Assembly (NCBI GenBank): GCA_050177605.1
Contig: JBFXGX010000011.1
Location: 1-55,976 of the forward strand
Reading direction: 5' to 3'
Origin: Candidatus Izemoplasmatales bacterium
Lineage (GTDB): Bacteria > Bacillota_I > Bacilli_A > Izemoplasmatales > Hujiaoplasmataceae
Length of the DNA stretch: 55,976 nt
In this document: positions 1,634 through 47,205 of the stretch, piece by piece
Layout: each line of letters starts with the position of its first letter
Position numbering within the stretch: the first letter of the stretch is position 1
Made by a program: the position numbers and the translations under genes
Notes under the pieces: model-generated
Databases searched by the model: none
The model's input: the letters and a program-made list of their open reading frames with translations, nothing else
Told to the model about the DNA's origin: nothing

Positions 1634-1797
1634 AAAGTATTGAACCAAAAGTTCAAAATTGAATTATTACTGTAATAATGTCTTGCCTTGAGATATAATA
1701 AAAGTAGATTCATATCCAAAAATAATCCTCAATAGAAATAGTAGTTTGTTTTTCTTGTTTTTCAGGTTGATAGAGGAAATAATTGAGGAGGGTTACT

Positions 1798-2034
1798 ATG
1801 AATCTAAAAAAAGTGTTAAACAAAGATAAGACGGGTGAAAAAATCAAAAGTTTTATTCGCAAATCATCCTTTTCTTATGAGGATATTGCAAATGAACTTG
1901 ATTTAAGTAGCGCTAGAGTTATCTATGATTGGATGAACGGATTTAAAATGCCAAATATAGAACACTTGGTCGTTTTATCTACCTTGCTTCAAGTACAAAT
2001 CGAAGACATTCTTGTAATAGAGAATGTCTTTTGA
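1798..2034 (+). CDS. XRE/Cro-C1 family helix-turn-helix regulator
   Basis: ATG 1798 after GAGGAGG; SYEDIANELDLSSARVIYDWMNGFKMPNIEHLVVLSTLLQVQIEDIL is a typical HTH_3 pattern. Confidence 0.88.
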   Translation: MNLKKVLNKDKTGEKIKSFIRKSSFSYEDIANELDLSSARVIYDWMNGFKMPNIEHLVVLSTLLQVQIEDILVIENVF

Positions 2035-2053
2035 TTTTTGTACCTTCAGTACA

Positions 2054-2082
2054 TTGTTTCCTAGATTTCAAATAAGTATAAT
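2054..2082 (+). promoter_or_regulatory. Sigma-A promoter of the large ncRNA
   Basis: TTGTTT (2054-2059), 17 bp, TATAAT (2077-2082); predicts a start near 2089, just before the closing stem; no ORF downstream. Confidence 0.75.
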
Positions 2083-2089
2083 AGGCTTA

Positions 2090-2644
2090 TCATAAGTTCT
2101 TTGAAAAGAAAATAGAGTGCAAACATGTCACGATTAGGCTCATAACCTAACATGTACACTATCTTCGGCACGGAAGAAAGGCGATAGTCTTTAGTAGTAG
2201 TGTCTCATCACCTATGAAACAACATAGGGAGGGTAGTGGTGGTATGTTGAAACTTATTCGTTATAATGCATCAGATCTTCTTGGGGGAGATAATAGACGC
2301 TACTAGGTAGAAAAATCAAGTTAGGGAAGTAAAGTCGCAACTACAGGCCAAACCTTGAAACGCGAACAATCCCTTTTGTCGTTGAGATACTTAACGGTAT
2401 GTATAAAAGAAGACTGAGTTGGAGTAGCACAAAATGACAAAATAAACTGGAATATAGAGAGATTTTTCAGGCTACCATGGTGTGAAACTTGAGGATAACC
2501 AATTCCTTTACAGCCTTGTTAAGAGACGGATAAAATCGGATCGCAACCGATTTGTGCCCCGTTACTTGCTGGTGGCAGAAATAATAACGATGTAGGGCAT
2601 ATTATGGGGACGACTCGGCACTTTATTTTGTTTTCAGAGAATTT
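2090..2644 (+). ncRNA. Large structured non-coding RNA (~550 nt), probably ROOL class
   Basis: No ORF of 60 aa or more; visibly more GC-rich than the flanks. 2094-2120 pairs with 2618-2644 (~27 bp with G-U pairs and one mismatch). Internal helices: 2123-2155, 2158-2188, 2195-2205/2295-2305, 2211-2228, 2275-2291, 2374-2383/2433-2442, 2533-2553, 2555-2599. Promoter upstream and terminator downstream. The ncRNA call is strong; the ROOL assignment is inferred from size and lineage. Confidence 0.8.
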
Positions 2645-2651
2645 TAAAAAA

Positions 2652-2679
2652 ATAGGAGAACTTTTTTGAGTTCTCCTAT
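2652..2679. terminator. Hairpin terminator between the ncRNA and the convergent suhB-like gene
   Basis: ATAGGAGAACT-TTTTTG-AGTTCTCCTAT perfect 11-bp stem, with an A-run on the left (U-tract for the minus strand). Confidence 0.75.
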
Positions 2680-3455
2680 ATCTTATTGTTTATACTTTGA
2701 ATTACTTCATTCATTACAACTTGATTTGCGAATGCGAATAAATGAGTATCGCCTATTTTGTAAGGCTCACCAAATTCATTTGAAATAATACCACCAGCCT
2801 CTTTCACAAGAACAATCCCAGGAGCAATATCCCAAGGATTATATACATCAGTGTATAAAAGAGAAAATGCACCTTGTGCTAAATGGGCCATTTCAAAACC
2901 CATTGTTCCTAACATTCTTAGTTTTATCTTGTTTCGTTGACTAAATTGAATCATTTCTTGAAACATAGATTTATCGTTATCGCTTTGATGGGTTATACCT
3001 ACTAAGGAAAAAAGCCTGTTTGGTGAAGTTGTGTCTTTTTCCGTATGGATTCTCTCCTCGTTTAAATAGGCACCTTCCCCTTTAATAGCAGTGAAAGTTT
3101 TGTTAATTCTAGGTGCGTAAATATAAGAAAGAACAAAATCATTATGATCATACAAAGCAACTTGAACAACGAACATATCCAGACCATGTGCATAATTGCT
3201 TGTACCATCGATTGGATCAATCAACCATGTTCTATCTTCAAGAGATGAGTCTTTATGAAATTCCTCACTGAAAAATCGATCATTTGGAAATTCTTCAAGG
3301 ATTGAGCGAATGATTTCTTTTTCAATATATAAATCAGAAGAAGTAACAATTTCATCTTTTGATTTATAAGAAACTTGTTTAATACTTTTTTCTGTAGCTT
3401 CAAAAACCTTTGGAATGATTCTTTTCAGTAAATTCATCTCACGCGAGTACACCAC
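2676..3455 (-). CDS. Inositol monophosphatase family protein (SuhB-like)
   Basis: IVTSSD, FSEE, WLIDPIDGTSNY and PWDIAPG motifs. Confidence 0.9.
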   Translation of the reverse strand: MVYSREMNLLKRIIPKVFEATEKSIKQVSYKSKDEIVTSSDLYIEKEIIRSILEEFPNDRFFSEEFHKDSSLEDRTWLIDPIDGTSNYAHGLDMFVVQVALYDHNDFVLSYIYAPRINKTFTAIKGEGAYLNEERIHTEKDTTSPNRLFSLVGITHQSDNDKSMFQEMIQFSQRNKIKLRMLGTMGFEMAHLAQGAFSLLYTDVYNPWDIAPGIVLVKEAGGIISNEFGEPYKIGDTHLFAFANQVVMNEVIQSINNKI

Positions 3456-3467
3456 GAATCTCCTCCT

Positions 3468-4151
3468 TTATTTTGTTACGCTTGGAATTTCGTAAGGTAA
3501 TATAATTTTAGGTGAACTAAAACCAAGTTTATAAAAACCGGTCATCACCACATATCCATTATACTCCTTACCTGTTTCAGTTTTTAACGATGCAATATTT
3601 TTGTTTAGGGCATTAATTGGGTTTGGGAATTTTGCTTTCGTTTTATAATTGACTCTGCCGTCTTGTTTAAATTTAGCACCTCGAATGCTCCATTCATCCC
3701 AACTAGGATTACCACTCACTATTCCCATAATATCGGCGAAATAGAGTGCATAACTTTTTCCGTGTTTGTCAAATACAATCATTCTAGTCTGTAGATTAAC
3801 TGTGATATCCGTATCTTTGACTCCTCCTTGTTGAACTTGATCATAAACAATATGAATATCCATAATGCCATGATATAAGGCTTCAAATATGTTCACACGG
3901 TAGATTCGGTAAAATACAGAGTTAAAATATCTGGCGATTTGTGATGAGAGAAAAACCAATAACACGATGAGTAACATAATCAGCACAGTCTTAATGCCGC
4001 CAAAGATGATTCTAACGGTTTCAAAGATATCAGGAGCCTCACTATAGTATAAAGAGATTATTTTATTGAGTACCCCAATGATAATGAGAGCGACAATAAT
4101 TTGAACAAGAGTTTTTAAAAGAGATGTATATTTTGAATATGAATTCATCAT
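3468..4151 (-). CDS. Membrane protein with a degenerate NERD-like domain
   Basis: Two N-terminal TM helices, then GIVSG...EW...KFPNPI...NIASLK resembling the NERD scaffold without its catalytic residues. Confidence 0.45.
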   Translation of the reverse strand: MMNSYSKYTSLLKTLVQIIVALIIIGVLNKIISLYYSEAPDIFETVRIIFGGIKTVLIMLLIVLLVFLSSQIARYFNSVFYRIYRVNIFEALYHGIMDIHIVYDQVQQGGVKDTDITVNLQTRMIVFDKHGKSYALYFADIMGIVSGNPSWDEWSIRGAKFKQDGRVNYKTKAKFPNPINALNKNIASLKTETGKEYNGYVVMTGFYKLGFSSPKIILPYEIPSVTK

Positions 4152-11097: not shown

Positions 11098-12273
11098 ATG
11101 GAATTAGAATATGGAAGATTTGGTGGACAATTTGTTCCACCAGCTGTAATAAAGGCTTTAAATGAATTAGAAATTGCATTTAATGAGGCAATCAATGATC
11201 CTTCTTTTATTGATGAGTTAAACTACTATTTGAGAGACTATGTAGGTAGACCTTCCCCGTTATATTTTGCTGAGAATCTAACTAAAGAACTTGGTGGTGC
11301 AAAAATCTATTTAAAAAGAGAGGATTTGAACCATACAGGGGCACATAAGATAAATAATACAATTGGGCAAATCTTACTTGCTAAAAGAATGGGTAAGAAA
11401 AAAATAATCGCGGAAACTGGTGCAGGTCAACATGGTGTAGCGACTGCGACTGCAGCTGCAATGTTTGGTATGGAATGTGAAGTGTTCCAAGGGGCACTCG
11501 ATATGAAAAGACAAAAGTTAAATGTTTTTCGTATGGAAATGCTCGGAGCGAAGGTTACTGGTGTTGAGCAAGGCACAAAAACACTAGCGGATGCAGTAGA
11601 TTATGCAATTCAAACTTGGGTTGATCGCATAGACGATACTTTTTACTTACTAGGAAGTGCGGTTGGGCCCCATCCGTACCCTACAATCGTAAGGTATTTC
11701 CAAAAAATCATCGGTGAGGAAGCAAAACAACAAATTCTAGATAAAGAAGGAAGGTTACCCGATGTTGTCATGGCTTGTGTTGGCGGGGGATCAAATGCCA
11801 TCGGACTTTTCGCAGATTTCATCCAAAATGAAGAAGTATCCATTATTGGAGTTGAAGCTGCGGGAAAAGGACTAGATACAAATGAACACGCAGCAACCTT
11901 AACTCTTGGGAAAGAAACCGTGATTCACGGAATGAATACTTTTTCAATTGTGAATCCTGATGGTTCAATTAAAGAGGCATACTCTATCAGTGCTGGACTT
12001 GATTATCCTGGTGTTGGACCAGAACATGCTTTACTTAAAGATACGAAACGTGCAGCCTATTTCTCTGCTACTGATAAGGAAGCAGTAGATGCTTTTCTTA
12101 AGTTGTCACAACTTGAAGGAATTATCCCCGCGATTGAATCGAGTCACGCGATTGCTTATGCAATGAAATTAGCTCCAACGATGAAGAAAGACCAAATTAT
12201 TATCGTTAATCTATCTGGTAGAGGAGATAAAGATGTTGAAGCTATTGAAGCGTATTTAAAAAACAACGATTAA
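11098..12273 (+). CDS. trpB: Tryptophan synthase beta chain
   Basis: [24 protein letters not shown] (PLP lysine), [29 protein letters not shown]. Confidence 0.97.
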
Positions 12274-16850: not shown

Positions 16851-17294
16851 ATGAATATTACCCTTTTTAGACAATTTGCAGATGGTGTGATGAGAGATTT
16901 TCATCCGAAATTAAGTGAAAAATTAAGAGGACGTGAAATCCATCTTATTACCCTTTTAGCGAAAGAACCGAATATGCCTCTATTTTTTTATGCTGAGCAT
17001 ATTGGGCTCGAAAGAGGTTCCTTCACCTATATGGTAGATGTTCTTGAAGAAAGAGGGATTTTAGTAAGGAAAAGTAATCCATTCGACAAACGACATAAAT
17101 CTATTGTACTCACGGATAAAGGATTATCTTTGGTAAGAGAAGCTGAGGAGCAATTACAAGATTTTATGAAAATATTCGTTAGTAAGTTGTCCGAAGAGGA
17201 CCAATCTCTTTTAGAACAGTCCTATCAACTCATTTCTAGACTGATGATGGACCGACCTCATCCTCCAGATATTAGGAGGGAAGAAGATGAATAA
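16851..17294 (+). CDS. MarR family regulator
   Basis: AEHIGLERGSFTYMVDVLEERG...DKRHKSIVLTDKG winged helix. Confidence 0.9.
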   Translation: MNITLFRQFADGVMRDFHPKLSEKLRGREIHLITLLAKEPNMPLFFYAEHIGLERGSFTYMVDVLEERGILVRKSNPFDKRHKSIVLTDKGLSLVREAEEQLQDFMKIFVSKLSEEDQSLLEQSYQLISRLMMDRPHPPDIRREEDE

Positions 17295-18672
17295 AATAGT
17301 ACTTAGCTTATCCTTGGTGGTTACACTCTTTTCGCTCATTGCTTGTACAAACACCGAAGCCGCAACTACAAATGACATTACCTATTCAAATGAGCCCAAT
17401 ACAACTGATCTTAGTTCATTCAGTAGCGAGGAAGAGATAATCGATGCCCTGATTTATCCTCATAATCAGGTCATTGAAGTCAATATCGATATTGATGATA
17501 CTGAATACTCAGATTTAATTGTCAATGCAACCCTAGAAGAGTATCATCCTTGTAATATAACCTATAACGGATTTACGTTGAATAACGTCGCGATTCGTAC
17601 AAAGGGGAATTCTAGTTTAAGAGATGTTGCTAGAAGCAATGGTACTAGATTTAGTTATAATATTGATCTCAATTATTTTGAAGACCAAGATTTATTCGGA
17701 CTTGATAAACTGATACTAAATAACCTTTACATGGATCCTTCAATGATTGCGGAATATACCGCCTATGAAGCGATGGACTCACTTGGAGTTATTTCATCGA
17801 AAACAACATTTATCGCATTATTTATCAATCAAAGTTATTATGGTCTTTATCTTTCGGTAGAACATGTAGGGAATGAGTTTTTAGATAATCGATTTGGTAA
17901 TTCTGAAGGTGAGTTTTACAAACCAGAAATAGAAGAAGGATCAGCTGGATCCCTTGGTGGAGCGAGCCTAGATTATGTAAGTGATGACTTCGATTACTCA
18001 AATTTGATTGACAAATTCAATGATACGCTGATTATTGATAATACCAAAATTATCGATTTGATGAAACGGCTCGAACTGAACAATCAAATTGGAGAAGTAT
18101 TTGATATGGCTCAATATCTAAAGTATCTTGCGGTATCAACCTATACAGTAAACTTAGATTCATATCAAGGAGGAATTTTTCACAATTACTATCTATATAA
18201 TAATAATGGTATCTTTGAATGGATTCCTTGGGACCTGAATATGGCTTATAATGGGTTCCCTGGCGTAAGGCTAACAGATAATGCAGCAATCGCATATTTA
18301 ATTGATGAACCCGTGGTGAATTCAATGGACAATTATCCGCTTATTGATGCCTGTTTTTCAAACCAAGACAATATTGAAAGTTATCATATTTATATGACTA
18401 TGCTCATTGAAAACTATTATCAAATTGATCATTTTACTTCAAGAGTTGAAGAAATTGTATCGATGATTGATCACTATGTCGAAAGCGACCCGAATCGTTT
18501 TTACTCTTATCAAGATTTTTTGAGTGCTGTCAGTGGCACATCCACAACAACTTATAGTATTATCACCTTTGTTTCAAAAAGAACAGATAATGTAAGGGAT
18601 CAGTTACTTGGGATTACAGCTAGTACTAACAATCGAAACGGAAATATCGTGACAGTTTCTTTACCAAGGTAA
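17287..18672 (+). CDS. CotH kinase family lipoprotein
   Basis: Lipobox LIAC; IRTKGNSS, KLILNN, YGLY..VE, NLDSY, HNYYLY, IPWDLNMA. Confidence 0.9.
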   Translation: MNKIVLSLSLVVTLFSLIACTNTEAATTNDITYSNEPNTTDLSSFSSEEEIIDALIYPHNQVIEVNIDIDDTEYSDLIVNATLEEYHPCNITYNGFTLNNVAIRTKGNSSLRDVARSNGTRFSYNIDLNYFEDQDLFGLDKLILNNLYMDPSMIAEYTAYEAMDSLGVISSKTTFIALFINQSYYGLYLSVEHVGNEFLDNRFGNSEGEFYKPEIEEGSAGSLGGASLDYVSDDFDYSNLIDKFNDTLIIDNTKIIDLMKRLELNNQIGEVFDMAQYLKYLAVSTYTVNLDSYQGGIFHNYYLYNNNGIFEWIPWDLNMAYNGFPGVRLTDNAAIAYLIDEPVVNSMDNYPLIDACFSNQDNIESYHIYMTMLIENYYQIDHFTSRVEEIVSMIDHYVESDPNRFYSYQDFLSAVSGTSTTTYSIITFVSKRTDNVRDQLLGITASTNNRNGNIVTVSLPR

Positions 18673-18784: not shown

Positions 18785-21592
18785 ATGAAGAAATGGCTTA
18801 GTTTTATTCTTATCTTTTTACTTTCGTCAGTGCTATTTGCTTGTACAGAAGATTCCACTTCTACAACCGCGAATACTTCCTCTTCTTTAACATGTTCTTT
18901 AGGCTTTCATATAGAAAATAATGAATGTGTTTTGGATGATCAAGAAACAACAGATTCAATTAAAGAAGTATCTGGTATTCTCGAAACAAATATCATTGTT
19001 GGACATTATTTTAATCCTCTTGATGGCGTTTTAGCTACTTCAGAAGAAGGCGTGAATTTAACATCCTACGTATCAATCGTAGGACATGTTGATTATGGAA
19101 CGATTGGTGATTATACATTAACCTATTCGCTTCTTTATCTCGAAGACTCTTTTTCAGCAGAAAGAATTATTCATGTCATCAATGGAACATATACACAAGA
19201 AAATCTGAGTAGACCAGTTGTCACAACTGGAAGTAATCTACTTGGAAGTGGATCCTACTTCAGTGGAACAAACACAAGTATCTCACATCCAGCAAGTCCC
19301 TCCTTTATCGACCATGATTTGTATGATGTCGCTATACCATCCAGTGGATGGTGGACATCGTTGCTCGTTCAAAACTATGGTGGAAGCAATGGAATCTATA
19401 CAAATCCGTTACGCGTAGCTTATACGAATGATGGCATGGAAATTACCAATCCTGAGGATGGATTTGTCCAATATTGGTTTAATGAAGGTCTTCAAACAAT
19501 AGCTCAGTTTCCACTCTCATTACGGGACTCTTATTTAAAAGCAACCAGTTTAAATGCTGGATACGAAACACATGTAATCAACTATTCTGATGCCGCTGTA
19601 CAAGTGGCACTTAGAAATGTTGGAAGCAGTGTTGATCAAATGGTCACGACGCTTGTACAGGGATCTCCATATGTATTTGTCGAAGTGGCAAACAAAGAGT
19701 CATTAACGTACAAATTTGATACAAATGCCGTAGATAATTATGAATATTATGATGTCGAAGGAAATTTAATTACATCTTCAACATATACGGGAAATGCAAT
19801 TATCGTAAAACTAGTTCATCGTCATAGTGGATATGTTACGACACCACCTGCCAATGTGGGTATGCCACAATATAGTGATAAATATTACTTAGTCAATACA
19901 CCAGATAACACCGTCTTTACAATTACAAGTGCAAATCATCCATTTGGGCTCAAAAATGAGTTGATCATCAATCTAGGAGACAGTAATTATTTATCTATTG
20001 CAGCGATTAACAATTTATCGGAAGCGTCATTTTATCATCAAAATGGATACTCGCTGATTAATTCAACCGATATAAGTTATAATATCAATTATGATGATAG
20101 TGTTGTAAGGACTCACTATACCTATAGCGCAAGTAATTTAAAAGATGATTCCAAAGTGTTAATAGCGATGATGCCACATCACTATAAAAACAGTGATGCT
20201 TCCTTGACAGAATACGCTTATCGTACTGTTCGAGGAACATTAAAGGTTCACGAAGGTAGTTATTTTGAAACCTCACTTGGGTTTAGTGGATTATTACCTG
20301 GCTTTACAACCCCTACGGATACAGCGTTTGATTCTTCGCTCGCGACAACTTATTTAAATAATTTGAATGACAATATCGATACTATGGATAGTGAAGATTT
20401 CATCAATTATGATGGACCTTATTGGAATTCTAAAGCGATGTATCCTCTATCACAAGGAATGATTATTGCGGATCAATTAGGGTTAGAAACATTAAAACAA
20501 GAATTTATTGGAAAACTTGAATTTGTTCTTGAAGATTGGTTCACTTATTCTGGATCTACAGATACTAAATTCTTGTACTATAACAATACATGGGGTAGTG
20601 TCTATTATTCTAATGATGATTTTGCGACAGCTTCAACACTGAGTGACCATAGTTTTACGCACGGATATTTGATTTATGCCGCAAGTGTTCTTGCTATGTA
20701 TGATCCAAGTTTCGTCGACAATTATGGCGATATGGTTGATTTACTATTAAACGATTATATGTTTACTGAAAAAGATAGTGCTGAATTTGCCTACCTTCGA
20801 AACTTTGATCCATTTGCTGGCCACTCTTGGGCTCATGGATTTGGGACATTTGCAGAAGGAAATAACCTAGAATCATCTAGTGAAGCCCTAAACTCGTGGA
20901 ACGCAGGGTATTTATGGGCACTTGCGACAGGTGACACTGAAAGAATGGAAGCTGCAATTTATGGTTTTGTTACTGAACTAAGTGCAGCGAAAGAATATTG
21001 GTTTGATTACGATGATACAAACTGGGATCCAGCCTATGGAGATTATGTTGATGTTGCAGGAATGGTATGGGGTGGAAAATTTGATTATGCTACCTGGTTT
21101 GGTGCTAACCCTACTTTCATCTACGGAATCCAGTGGCTACCAACAGGTGAATATTTAACCAGTTATGCACTAACCGAAGAAGAACTTACAAAATTATCTA
21201 GTATCTTTGAAACTTACCTTGCAGCTAAAAACGGCGTCATTGATACATGGTATTCCAATATGTGGGCAGTCATGGCGATTGTCGATCCAATCGAAGCAGT
21301 CAGTGAATTTGATGCTTCAAAGATATTGAATGATGATTATCCTAATGAACTAGTGGGAAGTTATTGGATGGTTCATAGTCTTGCTAGTCTTGGAAATAGA
21401 ACTAGTGAGGTATGGATGAAACTAAATACTTCAGTATCTTCAACTGTGTATGTTGACGCTGATGGAATCTATACCGCTATGGTTTGGAATCCAACACAGA
21501 GTGCGCACACGATAGAGTTTTATAATCAGGAAGGGTTACTAATGACTTATACGATTCAGGCAAATACCTTTGAATCAGTTGTTCTAAACTAA
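18785..21592 (+). CDS. GH81 endo-beta-1,3-glucanase lipoprotein with Ig-like domain
   Basis: Lipobox LFAC; PSSGWWTSL, QGSPY, DHSFTHGY, RNFDPFAGHSWAHG, NLESSSE, GIQWLP; terminator at 21597-21630. Confidence 0.9.
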   Translation: MKKWLSFILIFLLSSVLFACTEDSTSTTANTSSSLTCSLGFHIENNECVLDDQETTDSIKEVSGILETNIIVGHYFNPLDGVLATSEEGVNLTSYVSIVGHVDYGTIGDYTLTYSLLYLEDSFSAERIIHVINGTYTQENLSRPVVTTGSNLLGSGSYFSGTNTSISHPASPSFIDHDLYDVAIPSSGWWTSLLVQNYGGSNGIYTNPLRVAYTNDGMEITNPEDGFVQYWFNEGLQTIAQFPLSLRDSYLKATSLNAGYETHVINYSDAAVQVALRNVGSSVDQMVTTLVQGSPYVFVEVANKESLTYKFDTNAVDNYEYYDVEGNLITSSTYTGNAIIVKLVHRHSGYVTTPPANVGMPQYSDKYYLVNTPDNTVFTITSANHPFGLKNELIINLGDSNYLSIAAINNLSEASFYHQNGYSLINSTDISYNINYDDSVVRTHYTYSASNLKDDSKVLIAMMPHHYKNSDASLTEYAYRTVRGTLKVHEGSYFETSLGFSGLLPGFTTPTDTAFDSSLATTYLNNLNDNIDTMDSEDFINYDGPYWNSKAMYPLSQGMIIADQLGLETLKQEFIGKLEFVLEDWFTYSGSTDTKFLYYNNTWGSVYYSNDDFATASTLSDHSFTHGYLIYAASVLAMYDPSFVDNYGDMVDLLLNDYMFTEKDSAEFAYLRNFDPFAGHSWAHGFGTFAEGNNLESSSEALNSWNAGYLWALATGDTERMEAAIYGFVTELSAAKEYWFDYDDTNWDPAYGDYVDVAGMVWGGKFDYATWFGANPTFIYGIQWLPTGEYLTSYALTEEELTKLSSIFETYLAAKNGVIDTWYSNMWAVMAIVDPIEAVSEFDASKILNDDYPNELVGSYWMVHSLASLGNRTSEVWMKLNTSVSSTVYVDADGIYTAMVWNPTQSAHTIEFYNQEGLLMTYTIQANTFESVVLN

Positions 21593-22496: not shown

Positions 22497-24707
22497 ATGA
22501 ATAATCAAGTTTTTGACAAAAAATATATGCTCTATTTTGTCGCTTCCGCGACAGTGATTGTCCTAACGCTGTTTGAATATATCTCAACCCAAAACTTTCT
22601 TTTGTTTCATACTAGTTTGGGAATTGGGATGATTACACTTGGTATTGCCATTCCAGTCATCGGCATAATCAGTTCATTTCGATTAAAAGATAATATTCTT
22701 TCAAGAATTTCGCCGGCAATCTTCATCTATACGTTTTTAATGTTAATCCATATCCTTTCATTTCCTGGGATGAACATTATTCATAATGTCGGAAACAACT
22801 TTACATTTTTCAATTATTTCTTTGCTAATTTTATCTTGGTGATGGGTTTTATTGTCGCTATTCTTGATCGTCATATGGTAATAAAAACGACAACTCATTT
22901 AGCCCTCGCTACTATCTTTGGTATCTTATTTTTCTTTGTTTCGACAACTGAATGGGCACAAAATCAAAATACAGATTCTATATTGATGATTTCACAGGTT
23001 CTCTTAATTTGGTTATATATCGTAACGCTTTGTCTTTGGTATATCTATCGAAAATTGTATTTGGATTCCGAAATAAAAATATTGAGTTATGCAATAATCT
23101 TATTACTTTTATCCGAAATCTTTGGCGTTTTTCACTTCTCTGGAGCGAATTTGTTAGCTTCGTTTAGTCTCGGGTTTAAGTTTATGGCGTTCATGCTGAT
23201 TTTATACTTAACTGCCGTCGTTAATTTAATCCTTCCTTACAATGAACTTTATGAAGTGCAAATACAAGAGAGTGAAACACAAAAGTTTCTTCGAAAAGAA
23301 ATCAGTGTTAGCTTTGAGCGATTAAAACAAAGTCAACAAATTGCTCATGTTGGGACTTGGGAACTAGATATTGAAAATGACGTCGTGTGGGCCAGTGATG
23401 AAGCGTTTCACATTTATGGTATCCCAGTCACAGATGACAATTCATTTTCTTTTCAAATTGCTCGAAAAATGGTGTTTCAGGAAGATCGGCCAAAGCTGGA
23501 TTACGCAATGAATAACCTATTAACCAAAAAAATCCCTTATAACGTGTTCTTTAGAATACTCAATCCAAACAATGAGATTCATCATATTAATTCAATAGCG
23601 ACTTGTGAATATTTGGATGGCAAACCATATAAAGTTCTCGGTGTCATTCATGACATCACAGAGTTGAGAGTTGAAGAAGAAAAACTGATTTATGCTAGTT
23701 ATCATGATGAACTCACGGACACATATAATCGTCGATATTTTGTAGAACAAAGAAAGCATTTAAGTATTGAGTCATATTTGCCTGTGGCAAACATCATTTT
23801 AGACATTAACGGTCTTAAAATTATTAATGATAGTTTTGGACATAACGCTGGGAATCTGGTATTAAAGAAAGTTGCTTCTGTGATTAAGAATAATATGCAT
23901 GAAAATGGATTTTTGGCAAGAATCGGTGGCGATGAATTTGCGGTTATGCTAACCAATACCACTTTGTCCGAAGCAGAAGAGTTTATGAAACAAATCAATG
24001 GATTTATCAATAGTGAAAAAATCGGAAATATCAATTTATCAATTGCTTATGGAATTGCAATGAAACTTAATAATCATGATTCATTTGATCTCATTCTAAA
24101 AAAAGCAGAAGATGAGATGTATCTTAATAAAATGTCTCAAACATTTAGCTTTAGAAACAAAATTATAGATGCATTAACCAATACACTATTTGAAAAAGAT
24201 AATAATAGCGAAGAACATTCTCGGAGAGTTTCTGATTATGCATTTGAATTAGCCCAAGCATGTAATCTATCTCAAAAGAAATGTAGTGATATTAAAGTTG
24301 CAGGAATGCTACATGATATTGGAAAAGTCACAATTTCCAATGAAATCTTGAATAAAGAAGGAAAGTTAAATGCTGATGAATATACGATTATCAAGTCGCA
24401 TTCAGAAAAAGGATATAGCATTATTCATTCAATAGGGAATATGGATGTCATCGCTAATTATGTTCTTGAACATCATGAGCGATACGATGGCTTTGGATAT
24501 CCAAAAGGAATTAAAGGAGAAGATATCAGTTTTGAAGCAAGAATTATTGCTATAGCTGACGCCTTTGATGCGATGACTTCGTACCGAAGTTATAAAAAGA
24601 ATAAGACGAAAGAAGAAGCCGTTGAAGAACTAAGAAAATTCAAGGGAACCCAATTTGACCCTAGTCTCGTCGATATCTTCATTGAAAAGGTACTTTTGAT
24701 AAAGTAG
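22497..24707 (+). CDS. Membrane sensor (MASE3-like) - PAS - GGDEF - HD-GYP c-di-GMP enzyme
   Basis: About 8 TM; VGTWE...WASDE PAS; HDELT...NRR, DINGLKIINDSFGH, RIGGDEF; HSRRV, HDIGK, HHERYDGFGYP, IADAFDAM. Confidence 0.92.
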   Translation: MNNQVFDKKYMLYFVASATVIVLTLFEYISTQNFLLFHTSLGIGMITLGIAIPVIGIISSFRLKDNILSRISPAIFIYTFLMLIHILSFPGMNIIHNVGNNFTFFNYFFANFILVMGFIVAILDRHMVIKTTTHLALATIFGILFFFVSTTEWAQNQNTDSILMISQVLLIWLYIVTLCLWYIYRKLYLDSEIKILSYAIILLLLSEIFGVFHFSGANLLASFSLGFKFMAFMLILYLTAVVNLILPYNELYEVQIQESETQKFLRKEISVSFERLKQSQQIAHVGTWELDIENDVVWASDEAFHIYGIPVTDDNSFSFQIARKMVFQEDRPKLDYAMNNLLTKKIPYNVFFRILNPNNEIHHINSIATCEYLDGKPYKVLGVIHDITELRVEEEKLIYASYHDELTDTYNRRYFVEQRKHLSIESYLPVANIILDINGLKIINDSFGHNAGNLVLKKVASVIKNNMHENGFLARIGGDEFAVMLTNTTLSEAEEFMKQINGFINSEKIGNINLSIAYGIAMKLNNHDSFDLILKKAEDEMYLNKMSQTFSFRNKIIDALTNTLFEKDNNSEEHSRRVSDYAFELAQACNLSQKKCSDIKVAGMLHDIGKVTISNEILNKEGKLNADEYTIIKSHSEKGYSIIHSIGNMDVIANYVLEHHERYDGFGYPKGIKGEDISFEARIIAIADAFDAMTSYRSYKKNKTKEEAVEELRKFKGTQFDPSLVDIFIEKVLLIK

Positions 24708-45158: not shown

Positions 45159-46448
45159 TTATAAATAATTGTTTTTCGTGAATTCTAATAAATTATCATA
45201 TTGATTTTCAAGCTCTTCGCTCATCACCTTTGTTAATAAATCATTCAATATTTGTTTTATGATGGGGCCTTGTGGTATTCCAAGTTCAATAATATTTTTA
45301 CCGTTGATATTTAAGTCTTTAATCGAGAAACAAAGGGCGCTCATAATTACTTCATCAATAGTCTTTTTGACAGCCATCAAATCATCTATACGATAAATAT
45401 AGTCATGGCTTTGTGCTAAGATATCTGCTTGCTTTAAATCCAATAGTTCATTCAGATATTCACTACCGAATTTCGAGAGAAATTTACGCACATTTTTTTT
45501 GCTGTTGGAAAGTTGATAATCATGAAAACGGATTAAAAGCAAAACAGCGTCGATTTCTTTATTTGGGTACTTGAGTCTTAGCATTATTTTCTTTGCGATC
45601 TCTACGCTTTTTTCTTGATGACCATAAAAATGACCATTTCCTTCATTATCAACTGTATAAGTGGTTGGTTTGCCAATATCATGGAACAAAGCAGCTAGTC
45701 TCGTGATTTTGTCTCTTTTTACGCCATCCATAACTTTTAAAGTATGAATATAAACATCATAGATATGATAGTAGTTATTTTGATCAAAATGGACCATGGG
45801 ACTTAACTCTGGAATGATGGTCTCAAATATCTGAAGATATTTTAGAAAAGCATCTGAAGCATAGTTACAAACGATGATTTGATTGAGTTCTTCACGCAGT
45901 CTTTCTGGTGAGATGTCTACGAGTCTGTCTTTATAATCAAAAAATGTTTTTTCGCTTATTTTGTCAATTGAGAATCCATACTTATAAGCAAGACGAATTC
46001 CTCTCAAAATTCTTAAGGGATCGGTTTCAATTAGCGATGCATTATTTTCTGTTATTTTTATCACTTTATTTTCTAAATCGTTTATTCCGTTTGTGATATC
46101 AATCATTCCACTTCTTGGATGATATGCTAAGGAGTTAATCGTATAATCCCTCAATTTTAGATCATCTTCAATATTATTTTTTTCTCCTCGAAAAGAGGTG
46201 ATTTCGATATCCAGATTATTCTTATGGATTGTGATTGTATCATGTTTTAAACCTGTTTCAATGATTTTATAGTTTTTAAATATAATAAGCATTTCGTTAA
46301 CTGATGCACTAGTGGTTATATCATAATCTTTAGGTTCTATTCCAAGCAGATAGTCTCTACAAGCACCTCCGACTACATAGGCTACAAAATGAGCACTTTC
46401 AAGTAATGTTATAATTTCATATACGAGTTTTGGTAATTTCATCTTCAT
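45159..46448 (-). CDS. Class II tRNA nucleotidyltransferase with HD domain; flexible loop deleted (predicted CC-adding type)
   Basis: VGGACRD..LG..PKDYDITT, EITSFRGE-KNNI-EDDLKLRDYTIN, TDPLRILRG, SPERLREE, HIYDVYIHT, FHDIGKP, FYGH; ATG 46448 overlaps the upstream gene. Confidence 0.88.
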   Translation of the reverse strand: MKMKLPKLVYEIITLLESAHFVAYVVGGACRDYLLGIEPKDYDITTSASVNEMLIIFKNYKIIETGLKHDTITIHKNNLDIEITSFRGEKNNIEDDLKLRDYTINSLAYHPRSGMIDITNGINDLENKVIKITENNASLIETDPLRILRGIRLAYKYGFSIDKISEKTFFDYKDRLVDISPERLREELNQIIVCNYASDAFLKYLQIFETIIPELSPMVHFDQNNYYHIYDVYIHTLKVMDGVKRDKITRLAALFHDIGKPTTYTVDNEGNGHFYGHQEKSVEIAKKIMLRLKYPNKEIDAVLLLIRFHDYQLSNSKKNVRKFLSKFGSEYLNELLDLKQADILAQSHDYIYRIDDLMAVKKTIDEVIMSALCFSIKDLNINGKNIIELGIPQGPIIKQILNDLLTKVMSEELENQYDNLLEFTKNNYL

Positions 46449-47205
46449 ACCATTCAACCCCCTTAAAAAGAAAATCATTAAGCATATCAAATTGATTCTC
46501 TTTATCAATGAGTGTAGCTAATCTTTTAGGAAGTTCATCTAATGATTTGAGAATATAATCTTCAATTCCTTGTTCTAGCGGGACATTTTTTAAGGTAGTG
46601 GAATTGCGTTTTTGGTTAAGTAGGTGATCAATAGGCACCATAGCTAGATCATTAGGGTATATCGATAAAAGTTGTTCGAATTTCATAGGCGGATTCTCAT
46701 TATAGTCTAATACATATTTGCAGGAAAAAATTTCCCTCAGAACATATAAATACCATTTAATTCGGACGATATCTTTTGATTCTATATGTTTTTTGTAATG
46801 CGTTAAAAAAACATTAAAGTAATGAAATGCCATTGTTTTTTGGTCATAAAATTCTCTTGATAGAAGTTTGAGTTTATCAAAATATTCAGTTTGATAATAA
46901 ACAATTGGGGAACTAAACCATTCAAAAAGAGCTGGATTTGATTTTTTTAATAGGATAAGAGTTTTTTTTATGTCCCATCCGGAAATATCTAAATTTTCCA
47001 TGATAGCATATTCTAGAACATCGGAAGGTGAATCAATTCTCAGGTAGTCCTTCATTCTTCGAATGTAGATAAAACGAACATCGTAATCACTATCTGGTGA
47101 ATCAAATCCCCAGGCTCTACTGCCAGATTCGACTGCAAAAAGAATTTTTATTTTTTCTTTGGATTCTATTTCTTTAATCTTGTTTAAAATTGTTTCTTTC
47201 ATCAT
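46417..47205 (-). CDS. RlaP/YcgL-family Pol-beta nucleotidyltransferase
   Basis: AVESGSRAWGFDSPDSDYDVRFIY, DISGWDIKK, KSNPALFEWFSSPIVY, K.YLYVLR. Confidence 0.9.
   Translation of the reverse strand: MMKETILNKIKEIESKEKIKILFAVESGSRAWGFDSPDSDYDVRFIYIRRMKDYLRIDSPSDVLEYAIMENLDISGWDIKKTLILLKKSNPALFEWFSSPIVYYQTEYFDKLKLLSREFYDQKTMAFHYFNVFLTHYKKHIESKDIVRIKWYLYVLREIFSCKYVLDYNENPPMKFEQLLSIYPNDLAMVPIDHLLNQKRNSTTLKNVPLEQGIEDYILKSLDELPKRLATLIDKENQFDMLNDFLFKGVEWYEDEITKTRI

Follow-up and report, generated by a model that had tools for sequence, protein, structure and literature searches.

Organization of the locus

The window, i.e. the whole stretch of DNA analysed here (55,976 bases), contains a gap at positions 2090–2644, between a small gene of the + strand ending at 2034 and a gene of the – strand with its stop at 2676. 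The longest ORFs overlapping this gap are of 36, 30, 39 and 37 aa. The region had been described as free of ORFs, and with no overlapping frame above 39 aa this description holds.

A putative sigma-70-type promoter can be read from the sequence at 2054–2082 (+). It would combine a perfect –10 box, TATAAT (2077–2082), with a weak –35 box, TTGTTT (2054–2059; three of the six consensus bases), separated by a 17-nt spacer. It is missing from the list of our consensus scan because its –35 box falls below the 4-of-6 rule of that scan. Thus, of the “clean promoter” claimed in the initial annotation, the –10 box stands but the –35 box is weak. Transcription is predicted to start near 2089–2092.

At the other end a bidirectional intrinsic terminator (2652–2679, both strands) consists of a 12-pair hairpin with T-rich tails. 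It is common to the gap (+) and to the convergent gene of the inositol-monophosphatase family (2676–3455, –). The terminator scan found four terminator-like sites for 0.9 expected, and the hairpin followed by its T-rich tail agrees with the terminator announced for this region.

The gap encodes a ROOL RNA

The whole window was scanned with all 4,227 Rfam families at the gathering-score cut-off. Two families match: ROOL, in the gap, and a T-box leader elsewhere. The covariance model of ROOL (RF03087) aligns with window positions 2099–2637 (+) at 164.5 bits, for a cut-off of 99.1 (E = 5.3e-35). The match is non-truncated and runs end to end (model positions 1–574 of 574; 539 nt matched), and it was recovered again in a search of the whole genome (E = 4.3e-37). 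Since the model matches above its cut-off, the gap is a ROOL and not a new class of RNA. The initial annotation had left two options, a ROOL-class RNA or an unclassified one: the full-length match above the curated cut-off supports the former, and the existence of an Rfam match refutes the latter. The cmscan search that it had put forward as a check found ROOL and no housekeeping RNA in the window: GOLLD, OLE, RNase P, tmRNA and introns do not reach their own cut-offs anywhere in it, and ARAGORN found no tmRNA there either. Judged by its sequence, the gap encodes a genuine but unusually diverged copy of ROOL, which adds a member to a known family. The window copy is in itself an ordinary family member, and routine Rfam annotation detects such members.

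The T-box leader (RF00230; 10744–10971, +; 128.7 bits for a cut-off of 93) stands upstream of a PALP-family pyridoxal-phosphate enzyme gene (11098–12273).

The + strand of the gap folds at –157 kcal/mol (z = –4.43; none of 100 shuffles is equally good) and the – strand at –120.7 kcal/mol (z = –1.89). About 20 helices are found in the Rfam alignment, with 17 G-U/U-G pairs on the + strand; at least eight internal helices with G-U pairs had been noted. These 17 pairs in Rfam's frame fix the strand.

Structure of the window copy

The two ends of the RNA are joined by the closing helix P1 (5' strand 2094–2120, 3' strand 2618–2644, +). In this helix 26 of the 27 positions pair, three of them as G-U, with one G.G at 2108/2630, and all 26 pairs are present in the RNAfold minimum-energy structure. 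We compared P1 with 500 shuffles of both 60-nt ends, counting the longest helix with at most one mismatch. The observed value of 27 lies above all the shuffles (mean 11.2, maximum 20), so the end-joining helix of ~27 bp noticed in the initial annotation is confirmed.

The pair list of RF03087 was rebuilt in window coordinates from the cmscan structure lines, for nested pairs only; the published ROOL consensus, with its multistem junctions and long-range closing helix, also includes three pseudoknots. Canonical pairs are formed at 111 of the 148 pairs of the model, 27 pairs are non-canonical and 10 have a deleted side. The value of 111 is a lower bound because the Rfam alignment sets P1 one base out of register: 11 of 16 pairs form in the Rfam register, in a slippery A/U run, versus 26 of 27 in the shifted one. 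The helix formed by 2250–2269 with 2576–2598 shows just 7 of 15 canonical pairs in the Rfam register, with a low alignment confidence. The minimum-energy fold has only 33 of the 111 canonical Rfam pairs.

In an alignment of the window copy with 25 other ROOLs, 27 columns are invariant and about 56 nearly invariant. These columns include the most conserved motif of the family, the core motif AAUAGACG (2292–2299), the GAUA loop (2183–2186) and the motifs GUAUAA (2401–2406), AGUAGC (2423–2428) and GUGAAA (2482–2487), all on the + strand. Weinberg et al. reportedly list 10 highly conserved ROOL nucleotides.

An A-rich variable linker occupies 2433–2477 (+), in loop and insert columns of Rfam with a low posterior probability. 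By analogy it would correspond to the disordered, interior-facing region of the env-120 ROOL. The published inter-subunit bridges of ROOL are B1–B7 (L2/L13, L15/L15 and others). In the window copy the hairpin AAUCGG-AUCGCAA-CCGAUU (2534–2552, +) aligns with the conserved GUCGCU/GUAGCU loop of the family. From the order of the helices, this hairpin could be the self-complementary kissing loop between subunits that is named L18 by Kretsch et al. and L15 in the E. faecalis (Efa) structure. Its loop (2540–2546) keeps the UCGC core of the family, which is only a hint of cage assembly.

The window copy thus resembles RF03087 in the order of its helices across the whole model, in its core motifs, in its variable linker and in its long-range closing helix. 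The differences lie in P1, with 26 pairs versus 16 in the model, and in the peripheral elements. One hairpin is found where the model has two (26 model positions, 109–134, are reduced to 5 nt), the small hairpin near model positions 451–459 (9 positions) is lacking and the L18-like loop sits on a shorter stem than in the consensus. The 539 nt matched in the window compare with a family average of 581 nt. Because peripheral elements are deleted, the inter-subunit contacts may be incomplete.

Natural variants preserve base pairing

Sequences nearly identical to the locus are found in public runs of four studies; the best holders may be the source sample. Four runs were compared over window positions 1700–3500. 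X3 and X7, from other studies, contain short ROOL-only contigs, in pieces of 183–333 nt with 7 differences each (95–99% identity band). They provide 8 distinct substitutions inside or just before ROOL, five at paired sites and three at unpaired ones. The five at paired sites all keep or improve the pairing and none breaks a pair: G.A becomes U-A at 2176/2193, A-U becomes G-U at 2178/2191 and at 2533/2562, and a compensatory double change converts A-U into G-C at 2214/2225. Such a pattern would be expected of an RNA under structural constraint, in a small sample of 8 substitutions only.

X4, from a third study, carries a 2,583-nt contig ~92% identical to the window, with 66 substitutions and 11 gaps over 1721–2652 (932 nt). 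The same order is observed, i.e. HTH gene, ROOL and phosphatase gene; the terminator stretch 2653–2721 is replaced by 67 other letters.

None of the public runs holding the locus is on record as RNA. X7 bears an RNA-Seq label and has one 308-nt contig inside ROOL (2137–2439), which we considered as evidence of expression and rejected. This run is rated probably DNA, and the DNA run X3 is equally ROOL-only; X7 therefore says nothing on expression.

Divergence within the family and covariation

Other ROOLs were gathered with a core pattern, which returned at least 111 viral and at least 120 genome stretches, mostly chance matches. The candidates were then filtered by motifs, by an nhmmer profile and by Infernal. 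This sampling is biased toward ROOLs that retain the core pattern. Four of the viral stretches (L033, L058, L081 and L088) are chance core-pattern matches with type II hammerhead ribozymes (62–67 bits).

Among the matches listed, 22 ROOLs were scored with Infernal, and the window copy comes last (164.5 bits, the other 21 ranging from 216 to 390 bits). The window copy, 12 viral ROOLs, 12 ROOLs of named genomes and one of genome G054 were aligned with MAFFT. In the maximum-likelihood tree of these 26 sequences no end branch is longer than that of the window copy (1.88 changes per column), which has no supported sister and is at most 47% identical to any other ROOL. A single-sequence nhmmer search with the window RNA found no other ROOL among 121 loci, blastn found no match to it in 50,697 phage or 72,556 plasmid records, and an exact 26-mer taken from it is absent from the viral contigs. 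A profile built from 11 ROOLs, the window copy included, scores the window copy at 225 bits.

Covariation was obtained independently of Rfam. RNAalifold predicts 74 pairs on the 26-sequence alignment, 69 of which have at least one compensatory double change, including pairs of P1, P2, the GAUA hairpin and the central domain. Of the 110 pairs of the MAFFT-based consensus, 65 form in the row of the window copy, as compared with 67–108 in the other 25 rows. We attribute this low count to misregistration of the diverged row by MAFFT, directly seen for P2, by one base. As judged from sequence and comparison together, the RNA takes the ROOL secondary structure.

Genomic setting and distribution

A neighbourhood of tRNA genes or prophage is typical of ROOL without defining it, and it is absent here: ARAGORN finds no tRNA gene in the 55,976 bases of the window, and none of the 50 ORFs scanned matches Pfam families of phage structural proteins, integrases or terminases. 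The initial annotation, which had seen neither tRNA nor phage gene in the window, was right on this point. Among the matches listed, tRNA-free flanks occur at 11 of the 23 other ROOL loci checked, over flanks of 0.6–3 kb, and tRNAs at 12. The original description also reports ROOLs outside apparent prophages (Weinberg et al. 2017, PMC5737381). The setting of the window copy is not unusual, since these 11 loci are also tRNA-free and non-prophage ROOLs have been published.

The genes of the window are ordinary chromosomal ones: glycoside hydrolases, an RlmH-type methyltransferase, a CCA-adding enzyme, sugar kinases and regulators. Upstream of the locus a 403-aa protein resembles GNAT acetyltransferases (protein atlas, score 0.98) and matches no Pfam or PHROG family. 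Elsewhere in the window a gene for RlaP (RNA repair pathway, DNA polymerase beta family) adjoins the gene of the CCA-adding enzyme/poly(A) polymerase family (45159–47205, –). Genes for a MASE3-GGDEF-HD-GYP signalling protein (22497–24707, +) and a CotH-family kinase (17287–18672, +) are ordinary and unrelated to ROOL.

The genome (1.94 Mb in 66 contigs, 89% complete) has one ROOL copy only. ROOL was not found in 4 genomes of the same genus (70–91% complete) nor in 36 of the same family. Of 60 relatives one, G054, has a ROOL (216 bits); this genome belongs to another family, whose 9 other genomes yielded no match (10 genomes, 1 match). The distribution is thus patchy among relatives; these genomes are incomplete, so that absence from them is not proof.

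We considered that ROOL might be an insertion at this locus and rejected it, as no empty site is definable: the flanks of the same-genus genomes have 64–77% DNA identity. G004 is the only same-genus genome with an orthologue of the phosphatase gene and has no other neighbour in common. Base composition reveals no island at the locus.

The upstream HTH gene

Directly upstream of ROOL, on the same strand, lies a small gene for an XRE/Cro-C1-type HTH protein (1798–2034, +), whose end is ~65 nt from ROOL. Its likely start is the ATG at 1798, preceded by GAGGAGGG at 1785–1792; the longest ORF begins with a TTG at 1783. The protein (78–83 aa) matches the Pfam families HTH_26 (E = 6.6e-05; 23.5 bits for a cut-off of 22) and HTH_3 (E = 5.3e-04), and repressor families of PHROG at 3e-06. 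Between X4 and the window, 17 of the 20 substitutions in this ORF (1783–2034), among the matches listed, fall at third codon positions, which indicates a real gene under purifying selection. A terminator-like hairpin of 12 pairs (2002–2031, +) with the T-run tail TGATTTTTGT overlaps the last codons, the stop codon lying within it. This hairpin would separate the HTH transcript from ROOL.

A similar layout is found at L002, the one further ROOL of this bacterial order among the matches listed. A gene for a 92-aa HTH_3 protein (E = 1.6e-07) precedes this ROOL on the same strand, and positions 1390–1501 of L002 resemble window 2002–2098: the stop of the HTH gene in a terminator-like hairpin, a T-run, a short AT-rich spacer and a TATAAT, which ends 7 nt before the Rfam start of ROOL. 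BLASTP detects no similarity between the upstream HTH proteins of the window and of L002. Relatives of the window HTH protein (39–53% identity) occur on four metagenome contigs; none of the four has a ROOL or a flanking gene in common with the window, for a downstream sequence of at least 1.5 kb on two contigs, 567 nt on one and 122 nt on one. Among the matches listed are seven further tRNA-free ROOL loci, five of them without any HTH gene within 1 kb. The remaining two have a divergent PadR gene 163 nt away and an XRE gene 915 nt away behind a DUF3169 gene, respectively. Genes of the XRE type are common, and AT-rich spacers often contain a TATAAT. With dissimilar HTH proteins, no ROOL beside the four relatives and five of seven loci without HTH gene, we rejected a conserved HTH-ROOL module. 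The HTH gene is a neighbour and possibly a partner of ROOL, which we retain as a weak lead.

Comparison with known systems

Three ROOLs have been solved by cryo-EM. The env-120 ROOL is described as a D4 octamer 280 A wide, in which kissing loops and A-minor contacts hold the subunits and the poorly conserved linker is disordered and faces the interior of the cage (Kretsch et al. 2025, PMC12286853). Another report gives an octamer for the ROOL of E. faecalis (octamer/tetramer) and a hexamer for that of L. salivarius, and traces the difference between octamer and hexamer to one very short apical hairpin (PMC12990946). GOLLD, another large ornate RNA, is reported to form RNA-only cages and to have genomic habits like those of ROOL (PMC5737381, PMC12286853), from which it differs in sequence and secondary structure.

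A close parallel is the lncRNA of the L. salivarius UCC118 megaplasmid, which is a ROOL (Cousin et al. 2017, PMC5643018). This RNA is reported to be stable, to reach the abundance of 16S rRNA and not to be needed for growth; its deletion is described as leaving growth rate and bacteriocin production unchanged, and it is present in 34 of 45 strains. Like the window copy, it stands alone, outside any tRNA array, as its own transcription unit with a small HTH regulator gene adjoining, and its presence is patchy (34 of 45 strains in L. salivarius, one of five genomes in the window genus). On the account given there the two nevertheless differ. In L. salivarius ROOL is directly followed by the HTH gene LSL_1884, which forms a transcription unit apart, whereas in the window the HTH gene precedes ROOL on the same strand; and the former ROOL is carried by a megaplasmid, the latter by a region of ordinary chromosomal genes.

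The ROOLs located in tRNA arrays of phages and prophages (from 9 viral contigs and from several genomes of gut Clostridia) belong to the same family and share the same core. They score 251–390 bits and have tRNA genes within tens of bases, in contrast to the window, which has none in 56 kb. Since these tRNA genes flank them so closely, the ends of the array ROOLs are probably made by tRNA processing. In place of tRNA genes, promoter-like and terminator-like elements flank the window copy.

Interpretation

With family membership, the main helices of the fold, the strand and the structure-preserving variation established, the window copy is very probably a functional, strongly diverged member of ROOL, which forms a transcription unit of its own in the chromosome of an uncultured bacterium of low GC content. 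Its divergence might instead be that of a relic, i.e. a horizontally acquired ROOL that decays, no longer functions and stays above the cut-off only because its decay is recent. Consistent with this are the lowest score of the 22 ROOLs scored (among the matches listed), the 27 non-canonical pairs and the 10 with a deleted side, the longest branch of the tree, a distribution in which ROOL was not found in the 4 same-genus and 36 same-family genomes searched, and public runs none of which is on record as RNA. However, the deletions take out whole peripheral hairpins and are not scattered over the RNA. The 26-pair P1 and the promoter-like and terminator-like elements are intact, and the 27 invariant columns of the 26-sequence alignment are kept in the window copy (by construction). 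The variants of two other studies preserve pairing at all five paired sites, with one compensatory double change, and in the third (X4) the locus and its neighbours are kept at ~92% identity. We consider decay unlikely.

That the RNA belongs to a distinct, undescribed class of large RNAs which merely resembles ROOL appears very improbable. Over positions 1–574 of the Rfam model the order of the helices is retained and the conserved motifs, AAUAGACG among them, are in place, and the profile of 11 ROOLs (window copy included) gives the window copy 225 bits. This holds in spite of the single-sequence nhmmer search, which finds no other ROOL among 121 loci, of the lack of a blastn match in the 50,697 phage and 72,556 plasmid records, and of a tree in which the sequence groups with no other ROOL. 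Least probable of the explanations weighed here is that the region is a cis-acting leader or codes for a small protein, in place of a free-standing RNA. Four short ORFs (30–39 aa) do overlap the region and the T-box elsewhere in the window shows that this genome uses RNA leaders, but the gene that follows is convergent, with a terminator in between, the ORFs are no longer than chance gives, and the variants preserve base pairs and not codons.

For the functional ROOL that we favour, transcription would start ~7–10 nt past the TATAAT at 2077–2082 and stop at the hairpin 2652–2679, yielding a free RNA of roughly 550–600 nt. Initiation at its own promoter and termination at its own terminator would define the ends of this RNA, in place of tRNA or ribozyme processing. 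The RNA would fold into the ROOL secondary structure, closed by the unusually long P1 of 26 pairs. By homology, kissing loops and A-minor contacts would link copies of the RNA into a closed, hollow homo-oligomer, the linker lying in the interior of this cage; by analogy with the solved ROOLs, such self-assembly is most likely. The number of subunits is unpredictable because small differences in peripheral hairpins change it in the published structures.

Going further, the window copy might represent a distinct, minimal and stand-alone branch of ROOL that lives on bacterial chromosomes, away from phages and the gut. Such a branch would be transcribed from a promoter to a terminator of its own, with a longer P1, fewer peripheral hairpins and a coupling to a small XRE-type repressor gene. 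This extension is speculative and we hold it to be improbable. It draws on the same HTH-hairpin-TATAAT-ROOL layout at L002 and on the HTH neighbour of the L. salivarius ROOL. If it were true, the XRE-type repressor ~65 nt upstream might switch ROOL on or off, and the trimmed periphery could give a cage with a number of subunits unlike those solved.

To our knowledge ROOL is among the very few natural RNAs that build closed cages without protein, and we know of no cellular role for these cages in any member of the family. A copy that is diverged yet structurally selected reveals which elements of the fold tolerate loss or lengthening. It could help to define a minimal cage and to select cryo-EM targets. 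On a non-phage chromosome, a ROOL that has a promoter of its own and possibly a dedicated regulator would also make a simpler genetic system than a phage tRNA array for studying the role of the RNA.

Other ROOL loci

Several loci met in the survey have features of their own. At L154 (5694–6087) and L144 (3431–3824) two closely related tRNA-free ROOLs have a gene of the UDG family directly upstream and a tmRNA gene 2.0–2.4 kb downstream, on the strand opposite to ROOL. Small ORFs upstream of ROOL in L154, L144, L139 and L178 were considered as partners and rejected, as they belong to no family; those of L154 and L144 overlap the real UDG-family gene. A Lachnospiraceae MAG contains two ROOLs in tandem on the same strand, 51 nt apart (L258 and L259; G067:C6:18354–18880 and 18932–19566), scoring 258 and 219 bits respectively, with no tRNA in their 1.5-kb flanks. 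The ROOL of Romboutsia maritimum (L139/L254) adjoins a fragment of a PDDEXK_2 transposase on a 1814-nt contig with ~1559x coverage, according to the contig name; this contig may be a multi-copy or mobile element.
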